This document shows, in pieces, positions 5,735 to 27,701 of a stretch of 34,931 nt of DNA. A program made the translations under genes and the position numbers. A model generated the notes under the pieces. The model saw only the letters and a list, made by a program, of their open reading frames with translations. It was not told where the DNA came from and searched no databases. The stretch is from the sequence record SRR31156797_15603; one strand, given 5' to 3'. Each line of letters begins with the position of its first letter. The first letter of the stretch is position 1.

Positions 5735-6724
5735 ATGAAAGCATTAGCATTATTTAGTGGTGGGTTAGATTCTGTATTGTCAATGAAGTTGATCAAAGAT
5801 CAAGGGATCGAGGTAGTTGCAGTTCATATCAATATTGGATTTGGATCAACAGTAGATAGAACAGAACATCTTAAAAATATGTGTTCTCAAATAGGAGTTG
5901 AGCTTCAGATCTTAGATCTAAGAGAGATCTATTTAGATGAAGTATTATTTGATCCAAAATATGGATATGGCAAAAATTTTAATCCATGTATCGATTGTCA
6001 TGGATTTATGTTCAGGCATACAGGAAGACTTTTAGAAAAACTTAAAGCAGACTTTATGATTAGTGGTGAAGTGATTGGACAACGTCCTATGAGCCAACGA
6101 AAAGATGCTTTGGAAAATGTAAAAAGTCTCAGTGAGTTTGATGATCTAATTGTAAGGCCAATGTGTGCAAAACATTTAGAACCTTCAAAACCTGAAAGAG
6201 AAGGTTGGATAGATAGAGATAAGCTTCTCGATATTAGCGGAAGAAGCCGTCAAAGACAATTGGAGATGGCAAAAGAGATAGGACTACAGGACTTTGAATC
6301 TCCAGGAGGAGGATGTCTTTTAACAGAAGAACAGTTTTCTAGTCGTCTAAGAGATTTTGTAGATCATGACACTCTAGAAATTGATGATATCAATACTTTA
6401 AAAGCTGGTCGTCATCTAAGACTTCCTGATGGAGCAAAACTTATTATTGGTCGTCATAAAGAGGATAATGAAAAGCTTGAAGCAACACAAAGTGATAAAT
6501 ATTATAAAGGACGAATTCAAAATGCCACAGGACCTTTTGTACTTTTCCAAAAAGATGCTTCAGAGGCTGATAAAAAACTAGCAGCACAGCTGATCGTAAC
6601 ATATGGAAAAACTGAACTTGATAAAACATATAGTGTAAAATTTTTTGATAATGAAAAAGAAGTATTTCAAGTAGAAGCTATGAAACTTCCTTCAAAAGAG
6701 GAAGCCTCGAAGTATTTTGTATAA
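5735..6724 (+). CDS. PP-loop ATP pyrophosphatase, MnmA/ThiI-like putative tRNA sulfurtransferase
   Basis: SGGLDS PP-loop, NPCIDCH, GEVIGQRPMSQ and GGGCLLT motifs; C-terminal GRH.RL..GR domain. Confidence 0.75.
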   Translation: MKALALFSGGLDSVLSMKLIKDQGIEVVAVHINIGFGSTVDRTEHLKNMCSQIGVELQILDLREIYLDEVLFDPKYGYGKNFNPCIDCHGFMFRHTGRLLEKLKADFMISGEVIGQRPMSQRKDALENVKSLSEFDDLIVRPMCAKHLEPSKPEREGWIDRDKLLDISGRSRQRQLEMAKEIGLQDFESPGGGCLLTEEQFSSRLRDFVDHDTLEIDDINTLKAGRHLRLPDGAKLIIGRHKEDNEKLEATQSDKYYKGRIQNATGPFVLFQKDASEADKKLAAQLIVTYGKTELDKTYSVKFFDNEKEVFQVEAMKLPSKEEASKYFV

Positions 6725-6750
6725 AAGAGAAGAAATTACTTCTCTTTTTT
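6723..6750. terminator. Intrinsic terminator hairpin between convergent genes
   Basis: AAAAGAGAAG-aaatta-CTTCTCTTTT perfect 10-bp stem running into a T tract, right at the + operon stop and overlapping the 3' end of the minus-strand gene. Confidence 0.6.
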
Positions 6751-20896: not shown

Positions 20897-20988
20897 CTAA
20901 GAATGATAAAATATTTTGATTACAACTCGATTACATTTATGAAAAATGGTATATTTATAAATAAATGTATCCTATTGAATAGGATACA

Positions 20989-22341
20989 TTATTCATCATC
21001 AGTAAGATCAGCTAAAAATTGTGTCTCATTAAAATTTAGTCCAAGATACTCGCAGATCACTTTTGTATCTCTCTCCGCATTTCCAAGGCATGAAGTAGCC
21101 CCTGGACTTGGAGTCATATTAAAAATAATTCCATTTCCTGGGTTGATCGAAGCTTCACCAAGCATAAGTTTCTCTTTCTCTTTATCTAAAACCTGTGGTC
21201 TTACTCCACCAAATCCTGGTGCATATTTGATCTCATCTTCACTTAATGATGGTACGATCTTTTTTGCAGCCTTTACAAAAAGCTTTTTATTGATATATGG
21301 TACTTCATACATAAAGTTTTTAAGTAGATAGTTTCTAATATCACTATCTTTTAAAAGATCCCAGAAGATCTTTACAATATGAAAATCAAAATTAAGTGTT
21401 TTGAAAAAATCAAGATAAGTCCCAGACTTATAACGTTCAAGTTTTGGAAGGACTAGTGCAGTTGGACCAAATCTTGTTTTCCCATCCATTAAGATATCAG
21501 GATCTCCATGAAGTGCTGCAAATGGAAGTTTATTATTTTGTACCATATATACTTTTCCATTTAAAAACTCTTCATTTGTGATATAAAAGCTTCCTGCAAC
21601 AGGTAAGCATCCCATATGGGTACCATATCCCATCTTGTGAGCTAAAAATAATGAGTGAGCTCCAGCATCTACTACTACAAAATCTGCTGTATATTTATCT
21701 CCATGGGTTGTGATAATCTTAAAAGTCTTATCATTTTTTTGCTCAATAGTATCCACTTGAGAGTGAAAATATACATCTGTGATAACATCATCATTGACTT
21801 TTTTTGCTTCTTCCACTAAAGCTTCTGACATCTTTCCAAAATCTACCGTAGTATATTGGGTATTTGTTCCCATCGCTACCACAGGATCTTTTCTTACTTT
21901 TGTTTGCGCTTTATCTTCATATACGATCTTAGGCTCTTTCTCTTTTAGCTCTTCTACTCCCCATAGTTCAAGGTATGGGAAAAGCTCTTTAAACTCATGG
22001 TATCTATTGGTGATAAACTCTACCTCTTTTTTCCCAACCCCTAAAGCCATCTTTTGGTGTTTGAAAAGGATCTTTTCTTGAAGATCATATTGTACACAAA
22101 ACTTTTCAACCATTTTTGCTGTTCGTTTTGTTACTTTAGCTTTTTCTAAAGTATAGTTTGTCTCAATATCTCCAATATGGATCGTTTGAGAGTTTGATGT
22201 CCCTTTTGAGTTAAGAGTAGAGAGTGCTTCATATTTTTCAAGCATCCCTATCGATTTTACATCGGTATATTTTGCCAGTTCATAAAACAGTGCAGCTCCT
22301 GAAATACCACCACCAACGATCATTACATTATAATGTTTCAT
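20989..22341 (-). CDS. mqo: Malate:quinone oxidoreductase (H. pylori/Campylobacter type)
   Basis: IVGGGISG, NSQTIH.GDIETNYT, GKVY.VQN.KLPFAALHGDPD, GFGGVRPQ and FNMTPSPGATSCLGNA motifs. Confidence 0.9.
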   Translation of the reverse strand: MKHYNVMIVGGGISGAALFYELAKYTDVKSIGMLEKYEALSTLNSKGTSNSQTIHIGDIETNYTLEKAKVTKRTAKMVEKFCVQYDLQEKILFKHQKMALGVGKKEVEFITNRYHEFKELFPYLELWGVEELKEKEPKIVYEDKAQTKVRKDPVVAMGTNTQYTTVDFGKMSEALVEEAKKVNDDVITDVYFHSQVDTIEQKNDKTFKIITTHGDKYTADFVVVDAGAHSLFLAHKMGYGTHMGCLPVAGSFYITNEEFLNGKVYMVQNNKLPFAALHGDPDILMDGKTRFGPTALVLPKLERYKSGTYLDFFKTLNFDFHIVKIFWDLLKDSDIRNYLLKNFMYEVPYINKKLFVKAAKKIVPSLSEDEIKYAPGFGGVRPQVLDKEKEKLMLGEASINPGNGIIFNMTPSPGATSCLGNAERDTKVICEYLGLNFNETQFLADLTDDE

Positions 22342-22352
22342 ATCTTTTCCTC

Positions 22353-23465
22353 TTAAAGTGTTTCAAGTTCTTGGGCTAAATCTTTAGCGATTTTTTGATA
22401 ATTTTTGATTTCTAATAGTTTATTTTGTCCATTTTGTCCAACTTCTGCCATCTCATCTTTACTAAGACCTATGATATATTCGATCTTTTTAGCGATCTCG
22501 ATAGAATTAAATCTACAAAACCAAGCCTCTTTATCATCTTCAAATATCTCATTTGCATGGGCTGAATTTGTCATCAAACACGGCACTGCTGATGAATAAT
22601 AATCTAAAGTTTTAATAGGAGTAGAAGTATTAAACACTGGAAGATCAGGAAGTAAAGCAACCCCCACATCAGCTTCAGCGATAAAGTCAAGAAGTTGGTC
22701 TTTATTACTTGCATTGTGAATAAAAACTTTTCCATCAAGATTGTGAAATTTATCAAGTAACTTATTTGCATATTGTGGATCTTGCGTGGAAATAGTAAGT
22801 GACCACATCTCACTCTCAACTTTTGAAAATGCTTCTAAAACAGTTTCAAACTCTCTTAGTTTATCTAAAGTACCAGCATAGAAAAATCTTTTTTCAGGAC
22901 TCTCATGCTGAATATTTTCATGAAGTTTTTCTGGATCGATTCCAGCAGGACAATAAAATGTTTTGATATCAATATCAGGGAAAAACTCTCCATGCATACC
23001 TTTTGAAGTAGGGATGAAAAAATCACACTGATTGATCACTTTTACCTCTGAAGTGTTTTTAAACTTATTGCTAAGCTTATCTAAAAAAGTAGCTTTATTG
23101 TGAGCAATATCAAGCTTTAGCTTCGCACGTCTCTTTGGAAAAGAGAGTCTAAATCCTGTTTTGTAGTTATAGTATTTTTTCTCTTCTATCACATGTTTTA
23201 AGATAGCCATATCGTTTCTTACGATCACAAATGAGTATTGATCGATATCGATATCATTACTTTTGAGCTCTTTTAAAAGCATCTTTTTGTATCTACTTGG
23301 TACGATAAATCTATGTTCATCTTTTTTCTCAAAATCAGATTTAAATTCAGTAAAATATACTATATCTATATCAAAATACTCTTTTAAGTATTTTTCAAAT
23401 AGAGGTAAAATAAACCCATGATCTACATATTCACCTTGATCGGTAACATAAAGCAACTTTTTCAT
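22353..23465 (-). CDS. Glycosyltransferase, GT-B fold (GT4-like)
   Basis: FFYAGTL...R, ADVG..., STPIKTLDYYSSAVPCL (variant of P.K..EY.A.G.P) and GQNG motifs. Confidence 0.85.
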   Translation of the reverse strand: MKKLLYVTDQGEYVDHGFILPLFEKYLKEYFDIDIVYFTEFKSDFEKKDEHRFIVPSRYKKMLLKELKSNDIDIDQYSFVIVRNDMAILKHVIEEKKYYNYKTGFRLSFPKRRAKLKLDIAHNKATFLDKLSNKFKNTSEVKVINQCDFFIPTSKGMHGEFFPDIDIKTFYCPAGIDPEKLHENIQHESPEKRFFYAGTLDKLREFETVLEAFSKVESEMWSLTISTQDPQYANKLLDKFHNLDGKVFIHNASNKDQLLDFIAEADVGVALLPDLPVFNTSTPIKTLDYYSSAVPCLMTNSAHANEIFEDDKEAWFCRFNSIEIAKKIEYIIGLSKDEMAEVGQNGQNKLLEIKNYQKIAKDLAQELETL

Positions 23466-23599
23466 AGAACCACCTTTTGTAATTTATTATTTTATTGTAC
23501 TGTTTTATAGATAAGAGAAAGATATTTGATTGGCAAATATATTGCAGAATGACATATTTTTTAAGTAAGTTAGATTTTTTAGTTAAACTTTGGAAAATT

Positions 23600-23647
23600 T
23601 TAGTTATTGCAAATTTTGCGACAACTGGTGAAGATAAAAAAGTTTAA
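23600..23647 (+). pseudogene. Relic of a RhuM-family gene
   Basis: Translates LVIANFATTGEDKKV*, matching the RhuM segment SVVANFATTAxDGK. No intact 5' part. Confidence 0.55.
23602..23626. repeat. Imperfect 25-nt palindrome in the RhuM relic
   Basis: AGTTATTGCAAATTTTGCGACAACT: 10 of 12 pairs Watson-Crick, one G:T, one mismatch. Confidence 0.7.
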
Positions 23648-23663
23648 TTTTAGAGGCTGATAG

Positions 23664-23879
23664 ATGGAAAATGAAGTAATTTATAATGAGGGTGAGATAG
23701 AATTAAAAGTACCCGTTATTTCTAATACAATTTGGCTTAGACAAAATCAAATATCTGAAATATTTCAAAAAGATAGAAGTGTTATTACAAAACATATAAA
23801 TAATATTTTTAAAGATAATGAGGTAGATAAAAAAAGCAATGTGCAAAAAATGCACATTGCAAATTCTGATAAGTCTTAG
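23664..23879 (+). pseudogene. Truncated RhuM-family protein (N-terminal 71 aa only)
   Basis: TIWL.Q.QI.EIF..DRSVITKHINNIFKD.E...SNVQKMHIANSDK matches the RhuM N-terminus. It stops before the usual Y.LDVIISVGYRV segment. GAGG SD present. Confidence 0.8.
23836..23860. repeat. Perfect 25-nt palindrome inside the RhuM coding sequence
   Basis: GCAATGTGCA-AAAAA-TGCACATTGC (10-bp arms), encoding SNVQKMHIA. Confidence 0.9.
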
Positions 23880-23895
23880 TTTAAGAGGTTAATAA

Positions 23896-24771
23896 ATGGA
23901 TAATATAACAACAATAGATAATAAAAACCTACAAAATAAAATTTATACTATAAGAGGTCAGCAGATTATGCTAGATAAGGATTTAGCAGAACTATATGGT
24001 GTAGAAACTAGAACTTTAAAACAAGCTGTTAAAAGAAATATAGATAGGTTTCCTGCTGATTTTATGTTTGAATTAACAAATGATGAGATTGATTTTATGG
24101 TATCACAATCTGTGATACCATCTAAAAAGTATTTTGGAGGAGCAAAACCTTTTGTATTTACAGAACAAGGAGTTTCCTCTTTATCATCTGTATTATCTAG
24201 TAAAGTTGCTATTGAAGTGCATATAAATATTATGAGAGCCTTTGTAAATATGAGAAAAATTATCTCAAACAATGCTTTAGTATTTCAAAGACTAGAAACA
24301 CTTGAACATAAGCAGTTTAAAACTGATGAAAAAGTAGAAGCCATACTTAGTGCTATAGAAAATAAATCAATTAAACCAAAACAAGGTATCTTTTACGATG
24401 GACAAGTATATGATGCTTATATCTTTATAAATGACTTAATAAAAAGTGCAAAAAGTAGTATAGCTCTTCTAGATAACTATTGTGACGAGAGTGTATTAAC
24501 ACTACTTTCAAAAAGAAAAAAAGGTGTATCTTGCACAATCTATACAAAAAATATAACTAAACAACTCAAACTAGACCTTGAAAAGTACAATACTCAATAT
24601 CCAAAAATAGAGATGAAAAAATTTGAAGATTCACATGATAGATTTCTAATATTAGACGAAAAAGAGCTATATCATATTGGAGCTAGTTTAAAAGATTTGG
24701 GTAAAAAATGGTTTGCCTTTTCAAAGCTTGATATAAAAGCTTTTAATATATTATCAAGACTGAATAGGTAG
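23896..24771 (+). CDS. ORF6N (KilA-N-like) DNA-binding domain protein with C-terminal PLD-like putative nuclease domain
   Basis: IRGQQIMLD.DLAELYGVET..LKQAVKRN.DRFP.DFMF.L and P.VFTEQGV motifs; C-terminal I.LLDNY and HDRFLILD...HIGAS motifs. Confidence 0.9.
   Translation: MDNITTIDNKNLQNKIYTIRGQQIMLDKDLAELYGVETRTLKQAVKRNIDRFPADFMFELTNDEIDFMVSQSVIPSKKYFGGAKPFVFTEQGVSSLSSVLSSKVAIEVHINIMRAFVNMRKIISNNALVFQRLETLEHKQFKTDEKVEAILSAIENKSIKPKQGIFYDGQVYDAYIFINDLIKSAKSSIALLDNYCDESVLTLLSKRKKGVSCTIYTKNITKQLKLDLEKYNTQYPKIEMKKFEDSHDRFLILDEKELYHIGASLKDLGKKWFAFSKLDIKAFNILSRLNR
24097..24121. repeat. Perfect 25-nt palindrome inside the ORF6N coding sequence
   Basis: ATGGTATCACA-ATC-TGTGATACCAT (11-bp arms), encoding MVSQSVIP. 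Confidence 0.9.
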
Positions 24772-24847
24772 AGATAGTTTGTTTAGAGTTGTATCAAAAA
24801 TTAATAATGAATAAGAATACTTCTTCCACTGCTACAAAATAAACAAA

Positions 24848-24884
24848 TAAAAACATCACCCTGCACGCGGAAGTGATGTTTTTA
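24848..24884. terminator. Bidirectional intrinsic terminator
   Basis: TAAAAACATCAC-13 nt-GTGATGTTTTTA perfect 12-bp inverted repeat with A and T tails, between convergent genes. Confidence 0.7.
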
Positions 24885-24898
24885 CAAAAATAGATAGA

Positions 24899-25135
24899 TT
24901 AAGACTCACTAGTAAATTTTAATTTTCTATTTACCAGCTCTCTTGCCTCTTGATACTCTTTTGGATCGATCAGTTGAAGCTCCATATTAAGATCCTCGAT
25001 AAGTTTGCCTTTTTCATGTATATTTGTTGTAGAGTTGATTTTCTCAACTAATGCATTTACACTATTGATATCTGTTGCAAATAAACTTGTTGCTCCTAAA
25101 ATAGCTAGTATAGCTATGCTTTGTTTTACTTTCAT
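24899..25135 (-). CDS. Small secreted helical protein, 78 aa
   Basis: Sec signal peptide ending SLFA; AAGGAG SD. Similar to the protein at 25764-26024. Confidence 0.85.
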   Translation of the reverse strand: MKVKQSIAILAILGATSLFATDINSVNALVEKINSTTNIHEKGKLIEDLNMELQLIDPKEYQEARELVNRKLKFTSES

Positions 25136-26680: not shown

Positions 26681-27701
26681 AAAAAAATCTTTTGTTACCA
26701 CACTTTTTTTATTTTTAATTCCACTTGTTTTTTTTGCGAGCATTGTTCTTTATATGTATTATAATGATAAACTAAAAGATCTAGAGCAAACTCTTTTGTA
26801 TCAAATGAAAGATTATACCTTTGATTTTCAAGGGGACAAGTTTTCTTTAGATATTGTAGAAGAGGATAAACAAAAAGAAACCTTTAAAATTTATCATGGT
26901 AAAAATGGGCTTTATGCTTATTTTAAAATCCAATCTACTACACCATATATCTTAAAAGTAGTGTATGATAAGAAGAAGTATGATAAAGACTATAAAGAGC
27001 TTTTATCGAAGATTTTTAACTTTAGTATCGTAACTTTTATTTTTTTATTTATACTCTCTCTGGGGTTTACTATATATTCTTTGCGACCTTTGAAAGAAGC
27101 ACTTTCTCTTTTAGAAAACTTTTTAAAAGATCTGATCCATGATCTAAACACTCCTGCTACTTCTATTTTACTCAATTCTAAACTTTTAAGAAGACGTGGA
27201 GATTTTGAAGAGATCAATCGTATTGAATTGAGTGCGAAAACAATTGCATCTTTATATAAAAATCTAGAACTGATCACCCCACATCAAATAGTAAAAGATG
27301 AAACGATAGTATTAGAAAAAATAGTTGATGAGAGAGTGGAGATTTTAAAAAAGATCTATCCTAAAATAGAGTTTATAGTGCAGATGCAGCATTTTATGAT
27401 CCAAAGTAATAAAAATGCCATAGAGAGAATTATTGATAATCTTTTAACAAATGCTTGCAAATATAATAAAAAAAATGGACAAGTGAAAATATCAATTGAG
27501 AAATCCAAACTTATTATCGAAGATACAGGGATTGGGATAAAAGATACGAAAAAAGTGTTTCAACGATACTATAAAGAAAATGATTCTGGACTAGGTATCG
27601 GTATGAGTATCGTAAAGCAGTTGTGTAATATTTTAAATATTACAATCGATATAAAGAGTGAGCTAAAGAGTGGGACAAGAATAGAGCTTTGTTTTGAGTA
27701 A
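26667..27701 (+). CDS. Sensor histidine kinase with small periplasmic domain (DccS/CrdS-like)
   Basis: Two TM helices, H-box HDLNTP, N-box NLLTNACKY, DTGIGI and GLGIGMSIV. TTG start overlaps the regulator gene. Confidence 0.93.
   Translation: MKNYEKKSFVTTLFLFLIPLVFFASIVLYMYYNDKLKDLEQTLLYQMKDYTFDFQGDKFSLDIVEEDKQKETFKIYHGKNGLYAYFKIQSTTPYILKVVYDKKKYDKDYKELLSKIFNFSIVTFIFLFILSLGFTIYSLRPLKEALSLLENFLKDLIHDLNTPATSILLNSKLLRRRGDFEEINRIELSAKTIASLYKNLELITPHQIVKDETIVLEKIVDERVEILKKIYPKIEFIVQMQHFMIQSNKNAIERIIDNLLTNACKYNKKNGQVKISIEKSKLIIEDTGIGIKDTKKVFQRYYKENDSGLGIGMSIVKQLCNILNITIDIKSELKSGTRIELCFE

Follow-up and report, generated by a model that had tools for sequence, protein, structure and literature searches.

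Within a 34,931-nt stretch of DNA (sequence record SRR31156797_15603, hereafter the window), two perfect palindromes, P2 and P3, represent a dyad-symmetric DNA element that occupies one fixed coding position in Bro-N-like DNA-binding domains, namely in the ORF6N domain, in the RhuM N-terminal domain and in a subset of Bro-N/DinD-like genes from bacteria, archaea and viral contigs. The element is kept by a constraint on nucleotides: synonymous sites complement the opposite arm, the two arms covary, and the core is read in different frames. Comparison of sequences shows selection on its nucleotides and makes it a cis element with dyad symmetry, lying within genes that are candidates for anti-phage defence (PADLOC PDC-S05). 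What could such an element be for? The answer proposed here, to which a probability of roughly one in three is given, is that the domain whose coding sequence surrounds the element would recognise it as a DNA site, for the purpose of autoregulation.

Constraint on a coding sequence is usually taken as constraint on the protein; here, 13-41 nt are constrained as DNA, to the point that the constraint dictates pairs of amino acids (L with S, W with S, R with R, K with L) and survives a change of reading frame. The nucleic-acid constraint confounds any alignment, dN/dS estimate or structural interpretation of this segment, and the palindrome offers a simple, testable handle on the abundant ORF6N, RhuM and PDC-S05 genes. 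Neither a description of their mechanism nor one of an intragenic palindrome in these domains was found in the open-access literature searched.

Palindromes and genes of the window

P1 (23602..23626) is an imperfect palindrome of the RhuM 'VVAKFATT' type, a type set by comparison with the RhuM palindromes of the homologous loci L009, L011 and L134; 10 of its 12 arm positions are paired, the mismatches being one A.C and one T.G, and it stands alone, with an ATG at 23664 beginning 37 nt later. P2 (23836..23860) lies within a 71-aa ORF and combines a perfect 10-bp stem with a 5-nt loop, the ATG of the ORF6N gene following 35 nt past its end. P3 (24097..24121), within that gene's 291-aa ORF, has a perfect 11-bp stem and a 3-nt loop and is a palindrome of the ORF6N family, with the core TCRCA-NNN-TGYGA. 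The preliminary description had counted three perfect palindromes of identical length (25 nt). This holds for P2 and P3 as regards perfection, and P1 falls short of it; the common length depends on where counting stops, given that the perfect stems of homologues measure 6-19 bp. The encoded peptides are those that had been named, namely VIANFATT in a 50-aa ORF, SNVQKMHIA in the 71-aa ORF and MVSQSVIP in the 291-aa ORF.

Perfect stems of at least 10 bp with loops of at most 8 nt number five in the whole window, as against an average of 0.8 in 200 dinucleotide shuffles; five such stems were reached in 2 of the 200, and two within 300 nt in 1 of the 200. Besides P2 and P3, they comprise 6723-6748 between convergent ORFs, 20964-20990 at the 3' end of a 450-aa ORF, and 27624-27644, which has G/C in only 1 of its 10 pairs. 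Because this last is the only one of the other stems inside an ORF, the earlier statement that housekeeping ORFs hold no comparable stems is nearly right, with one exception. Nor do the palindromes qualify as intrinsic terminators (a G+C-rich stem followed by a T run), since a consensus scan matched P2 alone and on the minus strand only, P1 and P3 have no T run, and the stems of homologues lie inside ORFs. A promoter scan gave 14 sites where 11.2 were expected, and is uninformative; two promoter-like sites lie upstream of P1.

The 50-aa ORF (23495-23647, plus strand), which encodes VIANFATT at P1, overlaps a RhuM N-domain remnant (LVIANFATTGEDKKV*; 23596..23647, plus strand) resembling SVVANFATTAADGK-type peptides. 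RhuM-like sequence is absent 5' of this remnant, and homology between the window and locus L001 starts at 23639, 13 nt 3' of P1. The 71-aa ORF (23664..23879, plus strand) consists of a RhuM-type N-terminal (Bro-N-like) domain only. It is cut at 23872/23873, 12 nt past P2, and the contig of a relative carries the RhuM ORF on past 23872 with PVAFYNLDV. At a Pfam threshold of E<=0.1 neither of these ORFs has a match, to Virulence_RhuM (PF13310) or to any other model. PF13310 itself begins near the YNLD motif, 3' of the truncation point of the 71-aa ORF, and the RhuM-like ORFs of the window resemble only the stretch that precedes PF13310 in full-length RhuM genes. The order RhuM/RhuM/ORF6N read earlier from the sequence is borne out by Pfam for the ORF6N gene; the 71-aa ORF, despite its lack of a Pfam match, resembles the N-termini of full-length RhuM genes (tblastn) and the N-part of the PADLOC PDC-S05 model PDLC04881 (E 9.2e-23). 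The same ORF had been described as a relic; it may instead encode a working small protein, as is suggested by a Ka/Ks of 0.21 against L001 and by a truncation junction common to both.

The 291-aa gene (23896..24771, plus strand) has its ORF6N domain at aa 14-99 (PF10543, 115.5 bits versus a cut-off of 27.8, E 1.4e-33) and matches the PDC-S05 model PDLC04869 with E 1.2e-120, which makes it a candidate single-gene anti-phage system. Its C-terminal domain, for which NCBIfam gave sub-threshold matches only, is also found fused to RhuM-type N-domains (L106, L009). The contig of the nearest genome, G001, ends at window position 23083.

A constraint on nucleotides at a fixed coding position

In 12 of the 15 ORF6N copies of the genus, a single perfect stem of at least 7 bp is present, and it lies at aa ~60-77. 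The pattern extends over many phyla: in 83 hits at 80 loci, a stem of at least 6 bp is centred in the aligned segment in 76, a stem of at least 9 bp in 42, and the longest perfect stem reaches 19 bp, while stems of at least 8 bp outside the aligned segment occur in only 2 hits. The palindrome is destroyed by synonymous-codon shuffling, the control proposed in the preliminary description; the mean best stem is 9.04 bp in the real ORF6N genes versus 4.78 bp in the shuffled ones, with 52 of the 83 at p<=0.05. The arms also covary among homologues, as had been put forward for testing. In a MAFFT alignment of 80 ORF6N sequences, cut by protein landmarks, the 13 inner pairs are paired in 88.4% of cases versus 30-38% with slid partners, in 8 of the 13 both partners have changed, and the covariation score of 0.344 (0.151 in shuffles) was equalled by none of 500 shuffles. 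Covariation proceeds through amino-acid changes as well: a V->A change (GTG->GCG) accompanies a change of Ser TCA->TCG across the arms. Between the loci L002 and L004 there are 8 differences in 270 nt, of which two fall at the paired positions 210 and 218.

Beyond pairing, the ORF6N core is conserved as a sequence. No exception among the 80 sequences occurs at columns T49, C50, G60 and A61, and 79 of 80 agree at each of C52, A53, T57 and G58; this holds across Bacteroidota, Campylobacterota, Planctomycetota and archaea, and for both reading frames, such that GGTCACAAATTGTGACC reads (R)SQIVT(S) in most ORF6N genes and VTNCD in 5 of 80. The proposal that these genes conserve DNA symmetry rather than sequence is thus correct in placing the symmetry at the level of DNA, but does not apply throughout, because the inner core of ORF6N is itself near-invariant. 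The peptide types named in that connection (RSQIVTS / VTNCDR / VSQNVIP and VVAKFATT / NVQKMHI) all have their match in homologues. The core pattern TCRCAANTTGYGA has 7 sites in five complete genomes of the genus, every one of them within or next to these genes, as against 1 site for the reversed control. A second pattern, ATCRCANNNTGYGAT, gave 7 sites versus 2 for its reversed control in five complete genomes and was set aside as too noisy to use; one site is a known ORF6N gene, two fall by chance in an lpxA-like gene, and the remainder may be relics. Genes carry a single palindrome, except for L002, L004, L056, L075 and one copy at L060, which have two. Only 4 phage records, all of them unannotated, contain this type of ORF6N.

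RhuM N-termini carry a stem of at least 9 bp in 17 of 28 cases and, in viral contigs, one of at least 10 bp at 55 of 80 loci; synonymous shuffling lowers their mean best stem from 8.93 to 4.95 bp, with 15 of the 28 at p<=0.05. In Bro-N, a stem of at least 8 bp is present in 8 of 26 genes, and overall a good stem is missing in about one-third of RhuM genes and in most Bro-N genes. The centre of the RhuM palindrome varies freely (GCAAA, GGAA, CCA, CAAG, GTGCACA), the helix-turn-helix part being conserved, and its peptide is predicted to form the structured first strand of the wing. Outside the three related families stems of at least 8 bp are rare (0.34 versus 1.91 per kb). ORF6N and RhuM had been presented as two unrelated families, a view that is probably mistaken: two RhuM genes have N-terminal matches to Bro-N (PF02498) below the cut-off (E 4.6e-4 and 7.3e-4; the 71-aa ORF has none in Pfam), and palindrome cores and the C-terminal domain are common to RhuM and ORF6N, so that the two N-domain families are probably related. 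A search of E. coli genomes with the DinD-like Bro-N segment and its palindrome returned no match. Loops that differ as AAA versus TTT, or A versus T, in otherwise identical palindromes were considered as a sign of flipping and rejected, because single substitutions via AAT and ATT connect these states. Evidence for a diversifying mechanism was not seen in this analysis.

Could all this be chance, or the by-product of a conserved peptide and biased codon usage? The genome is A+T-rich (31% G+C), and part of the complementarity falls at non-synonymous positions, both of which would help such an origin; however, it is rejected by the dinucleotide shuffles of the window, the synonymous shuffles, the use of two reading frames and the slid-partner controls alike, and its probability is vanishingly small. 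A more substantial, though still rather unlikely, proposal is that selection acts on an mRNA hairpin that would delay ribosomes, determine how long the mRNA lasts or present a target to an RNase, and thereby restrain expression of a toxic effector, the stand-alone copies being hairpins of the 5' leader. Predicted RNA folds are indeed strong for P2 (-15.5 kcal/mol, z -4.8) and P3 (-14.0 kcal/mol, z -5.7), with P1 at -8.1 kcal/mol (z -2.6); effective loops are mostly of 3 nt, pairing outlasts changes of sequence, as it does in structured RNAs, and the stand-alone copies occupy positions typical of leaders. Yet the stems hold 24 G.T/T.G and 17 A.C/C.A cells beside 843 Watson-Crick cells, i.e. wobble on the sense strand is not favoured, although in so small a sample 24 versus 17 is compatible with a mild RNA preference. 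Invariance of the ORF6N core in sequence goes beyond what pairing demands, perfect stems persist in pseudogenes (L018, L039), and Rfam holds no matching family: the only match of Rfam 15 to 23300-25000 at E<=1 is a chance snoRNA (E 0.57) far from the palindromes.

Stand-alone copies, relics and breakpoints

Palindromes of these family types also stand alone 24-38 nt before an ATG, both in the window (P1, P2) and at L093, L094, L126 and L106. At L092 the upstream copy has 15 identical nt with the copy in the gene, but elsewhere the upstream palindrome differs from the internal palindrome of the next gene, as in P1 versus P2, P2 versus P3, and at L039, L093 and L094. Stand-alone copies are often decaying (P1, L106), and relics reduced to a palindrome adjoin an integrase gene (L039), an hsdM-like gene (L092) and an SbcC-like gene (L106). 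Several genes are broken or truncated at their palindromes, among them the window stumps, L001, which is frameshifted within a palindrome arm, and L008, an otherwise intact ORF6N gene with exact loss of the palindrome segment. Tandem duplicates are carried by L002 and L004.

It is conceivable, if rather unlikely, that the palindrome is a site of recombination or breakage, where an extruded hairpin or cruciform would be the hotspot or target for swapping, truncating or replacing the N-modules of defence genes and would persist because shuffling is favoured in such genes. The isolation of P1, the cut just past P2 and the onset of L001 homology just past P1 all fit with this, as do the frameshift, the exact loss and the duplicates at the loci just named, the neighbours of the palindrome-only relics, the exchange of ORF6N and RhuM N-modules on one C-terminal domain, and the regular spacing to the next ATG. 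Nevertheless, a recombinase is not consistently nearby (an integrase in one of the six upstream regions examined, L039), compact gene junctions would also give regular spacing, and second-order selection of this kind has little power. The three palindromes of the window are, moreover, unrelated in sequence and lie in different codon phases, and therefore crossover between them would not yield in-frame fusions. Contigs from four sequencing runs matched to the window hold paralogue fragments and no palindrome variants, with the proviso that contigs hide rare forms. Whatever its primary role, the palindrome may explain the frequent shuffling, truncation and repetition of these domains.

The same relics bear on the idea that the palindrome has no function at all and perpetuates itself, template switching from arm to arm (quasi-palindrome correction) mimicking covariation without selection. 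Perfect stems in pseudogenes and non-coding relics are what it would predict; L018 has undergone two double changes in a gene already holding a stop, the segment is dispensable (L008) and falls in a lower-confidence loop of the predicted ORF6N structure, and a wobble bias is absent. On the other hand, it leaves unexplained the invariance of the ORF6N core across phyla and frames, as well as the common position in three related families with its rarity elsewhere, and the RhuM peptide is a structured wing strand. Since palindromes are prone to deletion, retention across bacteria and archaea would need a counter-force. Self-perpetuation is accordingly judged improbable.

A DNA site within the gene of its putative recogniser

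In the preferred reading, autoregulation through a DNA site, the element would act as double-stranded or cruciform-prone DNA rather than as a hairpin of the sense-strand RNA, and a conserved factor would recognise it in cis. The simplest such factor would be a dimer of the domain encoded around the element; the only gene product seen to travel with the site is the gene's own. Toxic, antitoxin-less defence genes would in this way gain an operator that travels with the gene, a second copy of which would sometimes be placed shortly before the start codon. The palindrome would incidentally become a preferred end-point of deletions and rearrangements, and the window stumps would owe their shape to this preference. 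If the domain does bind the palindrome in its own coding sequence, the arrangement would be a compact way to move regulator and site together.

The DNA-site reading is backed by the fixed position and universality of the element, by selection at the nucleotide level, by the absent wobble bias, by the invariant ORF6N core, by the operator-like upstream copies, by the confinement of the core pattern to these genes in the five complete genomes and by the breakpoints at the palindromes. Against it, perfect arms of 13-19 bp (27-41 bp in total) exceed the usual dimer operator and better fit a hairpin or cruciform; the freely varying RhuM centre looks like structure rather than sequence recognition; upstream palindromes are unlike the internal palindrome of the gene that follows; and decaying stand-alone copies behave as relics would. 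In addition, RhuM and Bro-N genes without a good stem exist, as does L008, and the element is therefore dispensable for the protein. The homodimer prediction for the ORF6N domain scored 0.23 versus a mark of 0.32, which speaks neither for nor against binding, and a fold search with the ORF6N model found no match at E<=0.001, the best being Ski/Dachshund DHD winged-helix domains (E 0.04), which come without a DNA complex onto which the segment could be mapped.

Is the recognised site perhaps also part of the recogniser? In a 'self-addressed' module of this sort, a Bro-N-like domain (ORF6N, RhuM-N, DinD-like) would bind, as a dimer or on an extruded hairpin, the palindrome from which part of its own sequence is translated, i.e. 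the first wing strand in RhuM-N and the end of a helix plus a loop in ORF6N, where P3 encodes the C-terminal end of predicted helix 62-70 and loop 71-76. This is quite unlikely, but were it true, binder and target would form an indivisible inherited unit that could pass from one gene or genome to another and yet locate its site; changes of the site would necessarily alter the encoded peptide; and the coupling of a protein segment to its own coding DNA would be a natural one, a general and ancient principle in the design of phage and defence regulators throughout a whole superfamily.

Sites within the gene of their own binder are known from the lambda ori iterons in gene O, the pT181 origin in repC and the phiX174 origin in gene A, and auxiliary operators inside genes from lac O2 in lacZ and gal OI in galE; the lambda ori site also encodes a tolerant linker. 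All these resemble the present case in that a coding sequence contains a DNA site of dyad symmetry and, for lambda, pT181 and phiX174, the site lies in the gene of its recogniser, such that target and binder are inherited as one module. Unlike them, the putative site described here is one short palindrome that falls within the DNA-binding domain and is conserved throughout an entire domain superfamily in chromosomal defence genes; with one palindrome per gene, rarely two, it is not an origin of the lambda type, which has an iteron array and an adjacent A+T-rich unwinding region. Hairpin recombination sites offer a second comparison. Integron attC is an imperfect inverted repeat of 57-141 nt with extrahelical bases that needs the integron integrase (IntI), and other such sites are IS200/IS605 ends and REP elements. 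They too conserve structure while sequence varies and lie just upstream of the next gene's start, and the P1-ORF-P2-ORF layout of the window resembles the 'site - short leader - ORF - site' arrays of such sites; the stems described here are not attC sites, being perfect, 25-41 nt in total, inside ORFs and without a consistently seen recombinase. Rickettsia palindromic elements (~100-150 bp, in frame in unrelated genes, lineage-specific) are likewise translated palindromic DNA tolerated in a surface segment, whereas the present element measures 13-41 bp and keeps to a single position in one domain superfamily across phyla.

Candidate defence genes of the RhuM / PDC-S05 kind that lie within type I restriction-modification loci have been described before (PMC3710099, PMC9881135, 10.1101/2024.09.26.614923); the accessible portions of these papers treat proteins and neighbourhoods and make no mention of an intragenic palindrome. 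A RhuM-domain PDC-S05 gene other than that of the window is reported to have lowered plating of T7/T5 ~1000-fold and of T4 ~10-fold (10.1101/2024.09.26.614923). The window differs from the published loci in that its island lies outside any restriction-modification locus; it resembles them in that its two ORFs match PDC-S05 models, and at L092 an ORF6N gene follows an hsdM-like gene.

Reading frames and stems in the window

Three reading frames, all in the same direction, occupy 23495-24771 of the window: a 50-aa frame that ends ...LVIANFATTGEDKKV*, a 71-aa ORF (23664-23879) whose sequence lines up with full-length RhuM genes at their N-termini, and a 291-aa ORF (23896-24771) with an ORF6N domain at aa 14-99 (Pfam E 1.4e-33). 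Neither the 71-aa nor the 50-aa frame gave a match in the Pfam search, which picked out the 291-aa ORF only; models of PDC-S05, a PADLOC candidate single-gene anti-phage system, matched the 291-aa ORF (E 1.2e-120) and the 71-aa ORF (E 9.2e-23). The preliminary description had placed three palindromes in these coding sequences. P2 (23836-23860; perfect 10-bp stem, 5-nt loop) and P3 (24097-24121; perfect 11-bp stem, 3-nt loop) are real, and P1 (23602-23626) turned out to be imperfect, pairing at just 10 of 12 arm positions.

The window holds five perfect stems of at least 10 bp, whereas 200 dinucleotide shuffles average 0.8, and two such stems lay within 300 nt of each other in only 1 of the 200. 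Beside P2 and P3 there are three further stems of this size, of which two are intergenic and terminator-like and the third, within a sensor-kinase-like ORF, is nearly pure A+T. One of the former (20964-20990; perfect 13-bp stem, 1-nt loop) lies at the 3' end of a 450-aa malate:quinone-oxidoreductase-like ORF and the other (6723-6748; 10-bp stem) at the 11-nt gap separating convergent ORFs; both are probably bidirectional terminators and show no sequence kinship with the family palindromes. By eye, a hairpin that contains G+C and leads into a run of T (AAAAACATCAC...GTGATGTTTTT) can also be seen at 24845-24880, 3' of the 291-aa gene, whose terminator it probably is; it is absent from the list produced by a consensus scan for terminators.

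A dyad-symmetric element under nucleotide-level selection

The genus of the nearest relative genome carries many paralogues of these genes. Among the ORF6N copies of genus and window, 12 of 15 have the sole perfect stem of at least 7 bp of the domain at aa ~60-77, stems in the genus reaching up to 16 bp; the three exceptions are the homologous loci L001, with a frameshifted left arm, L008, with the segment absent, and L018, a pseudogene. L008 (G006:C215) is an apparently intact ORF6N gene from which exactly the palindrome segment is gone (FTKEE-YLPYVFTEQG), so that the protein can dispense with it.

A wider scan of one genome per species gave 80 ORF6N loci with 83 domain hits in Bacteroidota, Campylobacterota, Planctomycetota, Verrucomicrobiota, Chlamydiota, Elusimicrobiota, candidate phyla and archaea. 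A perfect stem of at least 6 bp is centred in the aligned segment in 76 of the 83 hits and one of at least 9 bp in 42, with a maximum of 19 bp; just 2 of 83 have a stem of at least 8 bp beyond that segment, and about 5 of the 76 have as their best stem another one that lies off the core. RhuM N-termini in the genus loci carry the palindrome in 8 of 8 cases, and a phylum-wide search with PF13310, the Virulence_RhuM Pfam model, yielded stems of at least 9 bp in 17 of 28 distinct genes, 8-28 codons ahead of the YNLD motif. RhuM loci from IMG/VR have stems of at least 6 bp in 66 of 80 and of at least 10 bp in 55 of 80 (25 of 35 distinct sequences). For Bro-N proper, stems of at least 8 bp were found in 8 of 26 hits, seven of the eight at 46-54% of domain length, and they include 13-14-bp ones in DinD-like genes. 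Across 371 kb of loci, stems of at least 8 bp number 1.91 per kb within domain hits versus 0.34 per kb elsewhere. The pattern extends across phyla and three related families, and it survives every control run.

The palindromes of the DinD-like Bro-N genes (L238, L243), ACCATTTTCG...CGAAAATGGT, are 13-14 bp long with even loops of 0-4 nt, and their peptides are DHFRHVAKMV and DHFRGVTKMV; at L031, the same palindrome, with loop 0, lies 96 nt upstream of the ORF6N ATG. A DNA search returned no E. coli counterpart.

Is it the peptide that is conserved at this position, or the symmetry of the DNA? The preliminary description had opted for the latter, and it is supported by synonymous shuffles, covariation, compensation across the protein level and multi-frame reading. 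With synonymous codons shuffled within the gene, the best stem averaged 4.78 bp in ORF6N, down from 9.04 bp (52 of 83 hits beyond the shuffles at p<=0.05, 38 of 83 at p<=0.01), and 4.95 bp in RhuM, down from 8.93 bp (15 of 28 at p<=0.05), a control that is conservative because the retained amino acids themselves carry part of the symmetry. The 80 ORF6N sequences were cut by protein landmarks, the palindrome not being used, before alignment with MAFFT. In the 13 inner pairs, 88.4% of cells are standard-paired, versus 30-38% with partners slid by 1-3 columns; both sides change in 8 of the 13 (for example A-U 38, G-C 31, U-A 4), and the covariation score of 0.344, versus 0.151 shuffled, was attained by none of 500 shuffles. 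The six outer pairs are 39% paired overall and perfect inside subfamilies, as in AACTTGAGG...CCTCAAGTT and ATTGGAGG...CCTCCAAT.

In the proteins, replacement of V by A (GTG to GCG) is accompanied by a synonymous Ser change (TCA to TCG), NL...SSW alternates with NW...SN in the outer arms, and the RhuM residue pairs R/R, K/L, S/E and A/A track codon complementarity. Loci L002 and L004 differ at eight sites in their first 270 nt, and positions 210 and 218, which pair with each other, account for two of the eight. The same DNA, GGTCACAAATTGTGACC, is read in two frames, as VTNCD in 5 of 80 genes and as (R)SQIVT(S) in most, and RhuM cores, for example GTCGCAAA.TTTGCGAC, are similar to those of ORF6N, with the left arm in yet another phase. 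These data establish a dyad-symmetric element, under selection at the nucleotide level, that is bound to one position of the domain superfamily.

In an AlphaFold2 model of the ORF6N domain (window 23896-24270; 89-sequence alignment, mean pLDDT 85), M68-S76 covers the C-terminal end of helix 62-70 and loop 71-76 and is the lowest-confidence block within the predicted fold, whose nearest PDB folds are those of the animal Ski/Dachshund DHD, winged-helix-like (Foldseek E 0.04, probability 0.98, TM 0.42-0.54). The palindrome peptide in a RhuM N-domain model (L009, mean pLDDT 84) falls on a short helix and on strand 65-71, which an alignment of the L009 sequence identifies as the first strand of the beta-hairpin after the helix-turn-helix. 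By these models, the segment would form a permissive loop in ORF6N, and in RhuM-N it would belong to the wing.

Stand-alone copies and curtailed genes

Family-type palindromes without a surrounding domain are also present directly upstream of these genes. P1 and P2 lie 37 and 35 nt from the next ATG; the distance is 31 nt at L094, 35 and 56 nt at L093, 31 nt at L126 and about 25-30 nt at L106. At L106 (G016:C1:909213-912225), two palindromes of the ORF6N type, reading NWRSHFVTSS and LRSQIVTL, lie about 25-70 nt upstream of a fusion gene, in the stretch from the stop of an SbcC-like gene to the ribosome-binding site for the fusion, which combines a RhuM-type N-domain with the C-terminal domain found in the window's 291-aa protein. 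Further copies are found at L039 (Porphyromonas sp. scaffold), where a tyrosine-integrase-like gene ends ~30 nt before the palindrome and the ORF6N ATG follows 46 nt after it; at L092 (Mariprofundus sp.), with two palindromes upstream and the ORF6N gene coming after an hsdM-like gene; and upstream at L087. Among the stand-alone copies there are perfect ones as well as decaying ones (P1, L106). In five complete genus genomes, the core pattern TCRCAANTTGYGA has seven sites, every one in or beside these genes, versus one occurrence of its reversed control.

At L252 (G009:C1:1243191-1243217), a HigA-like antitoxin gene and a convergent membrane-protein gene are separated by a gap that contains a perfect 12-bp family-type palindrome; if translated it would give ELITKCDKF, and an ORF6N gene is absent nearby. 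The C-terminal domain of the 291-aa protein (24349-24768; ...SHDRFLILD...YHIGASLKDLGKKWFAFSKL) matches no Pfam/NCBIfam family above threshold, and its ...SHDRFLILD... motif may, by eye, recall phospholipase-D-like nucleases. It is joined to either ORF6N or RhuM-type N-domains in the genus (window, L009, L106, L008), so that the N-modules are interchangeable.

On a relative's contig, the RhuM ORF runs on past 23872 with PVAFYNLDV, which puts the cut in the RhuM gene of the window 12 nt after P2, a junction shared with L001. Similarity between the window and L001, the closest locus, begins at 23639, 13 nt after P1. Over the 66 codons that the two have in common, Ka/Ks is 0.094/0.45 = 0.21, so the 71-aa product is likely no dead relic; it is probably an N-domain-only protein under purifying selection. 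The L018 pseudogene retains a perfect 10-bp stem; compared with its relatives, the core has undergone two double changes, both compensated, and now reads TTCCA...TGGAA, a type that the RhuM genes L015, L002 and L131 also carry.

Recognition of sequence or conservation of structure

The inner ORF6N core, TCRCA-NNN-TGYGA, is nearly invariant (four columns 80/80, four columns 79/80) across both reading frames and phyla, which argues for sequence recognition beyond mere pairing. RhuM genes show the reverse, a variable centre with the outer arms AACTGT...ACAGTT or CAGT(T/A)(G/A)T...ACTG kept; this looks more like conserved structure, with the caveat that the outer arms encode conserved residues too. 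Palindrome centres are A/T-rich throughout, effective loops are mostly 3 nt, and no Rfam family matches. A sense-strand RNA helix is expected to accept G.U far more readily than A.C. The 12 inner ORF6N pairs comprise 843 Watson-Crick cells, 24 G.T/T.G, 17 A.C/C.A and 65 other mismatches; the preference that an RNA helix would predict is not seen, though the numbers are small, and this speaks against an mRNA hairpin, which we regard as unlikely.

The reading we favour, at roughly one chance in three, is that the palindrome is a DNA site for recognition in cis, the simplest candidate for its binder being the domain whose coding sequence surrounds it, and that such recognition would let toxic genes lacking an antitoxin regulate their own expression. 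It is preferred because the ORF6N core keeps its sequence across phyla and frames, because the gene's own product is the sole factor seen travelling with the site, because wobble bias is absent, and because the extra copies occupy operator-like positions. Against it stand arms reaching 19 bp, beyond the usual operator length, RhuM centres that vary freely, and upstream and internal palindromes at one locus that are mostly unlike. All three would be better accommodated by the mRNA hairpin, by a site of breakage or recombination, which is about as doubtful, or by a palindrome that corrects itself and has no function, which seems less probable still. These rivals are mutually compatible. A functional dyad would double as a deletion hotspot, and the window's stumps may be the outcome of deletions there.

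The closest known arrangement is a site within the gene of its own binding protein, as with the lambda origin inside gene O and the pT181 origin inside repC.

In the open-access article texts searched, no description of the palindrome was found, and it is unmentioned in the relevant text of three sources (PMC3710099; PMC9881135; preprint 10.1101/2024.09.26.614923). In that text, RhuM-like proteins are proposed to be toxin components within restriction-modification loci (PMC3710099); genes annotated 'Virulence RhuM family protein' are enriched next to inversion-controlled hsdS genes, and one of them is described with dinD and RhuM domains (PMC9881135); and one RhuM-domain PDC-S05 gene is reported to shield E. 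coli from T7, T5 and T4 (preprint 10.1101/2024.09.26.614923).
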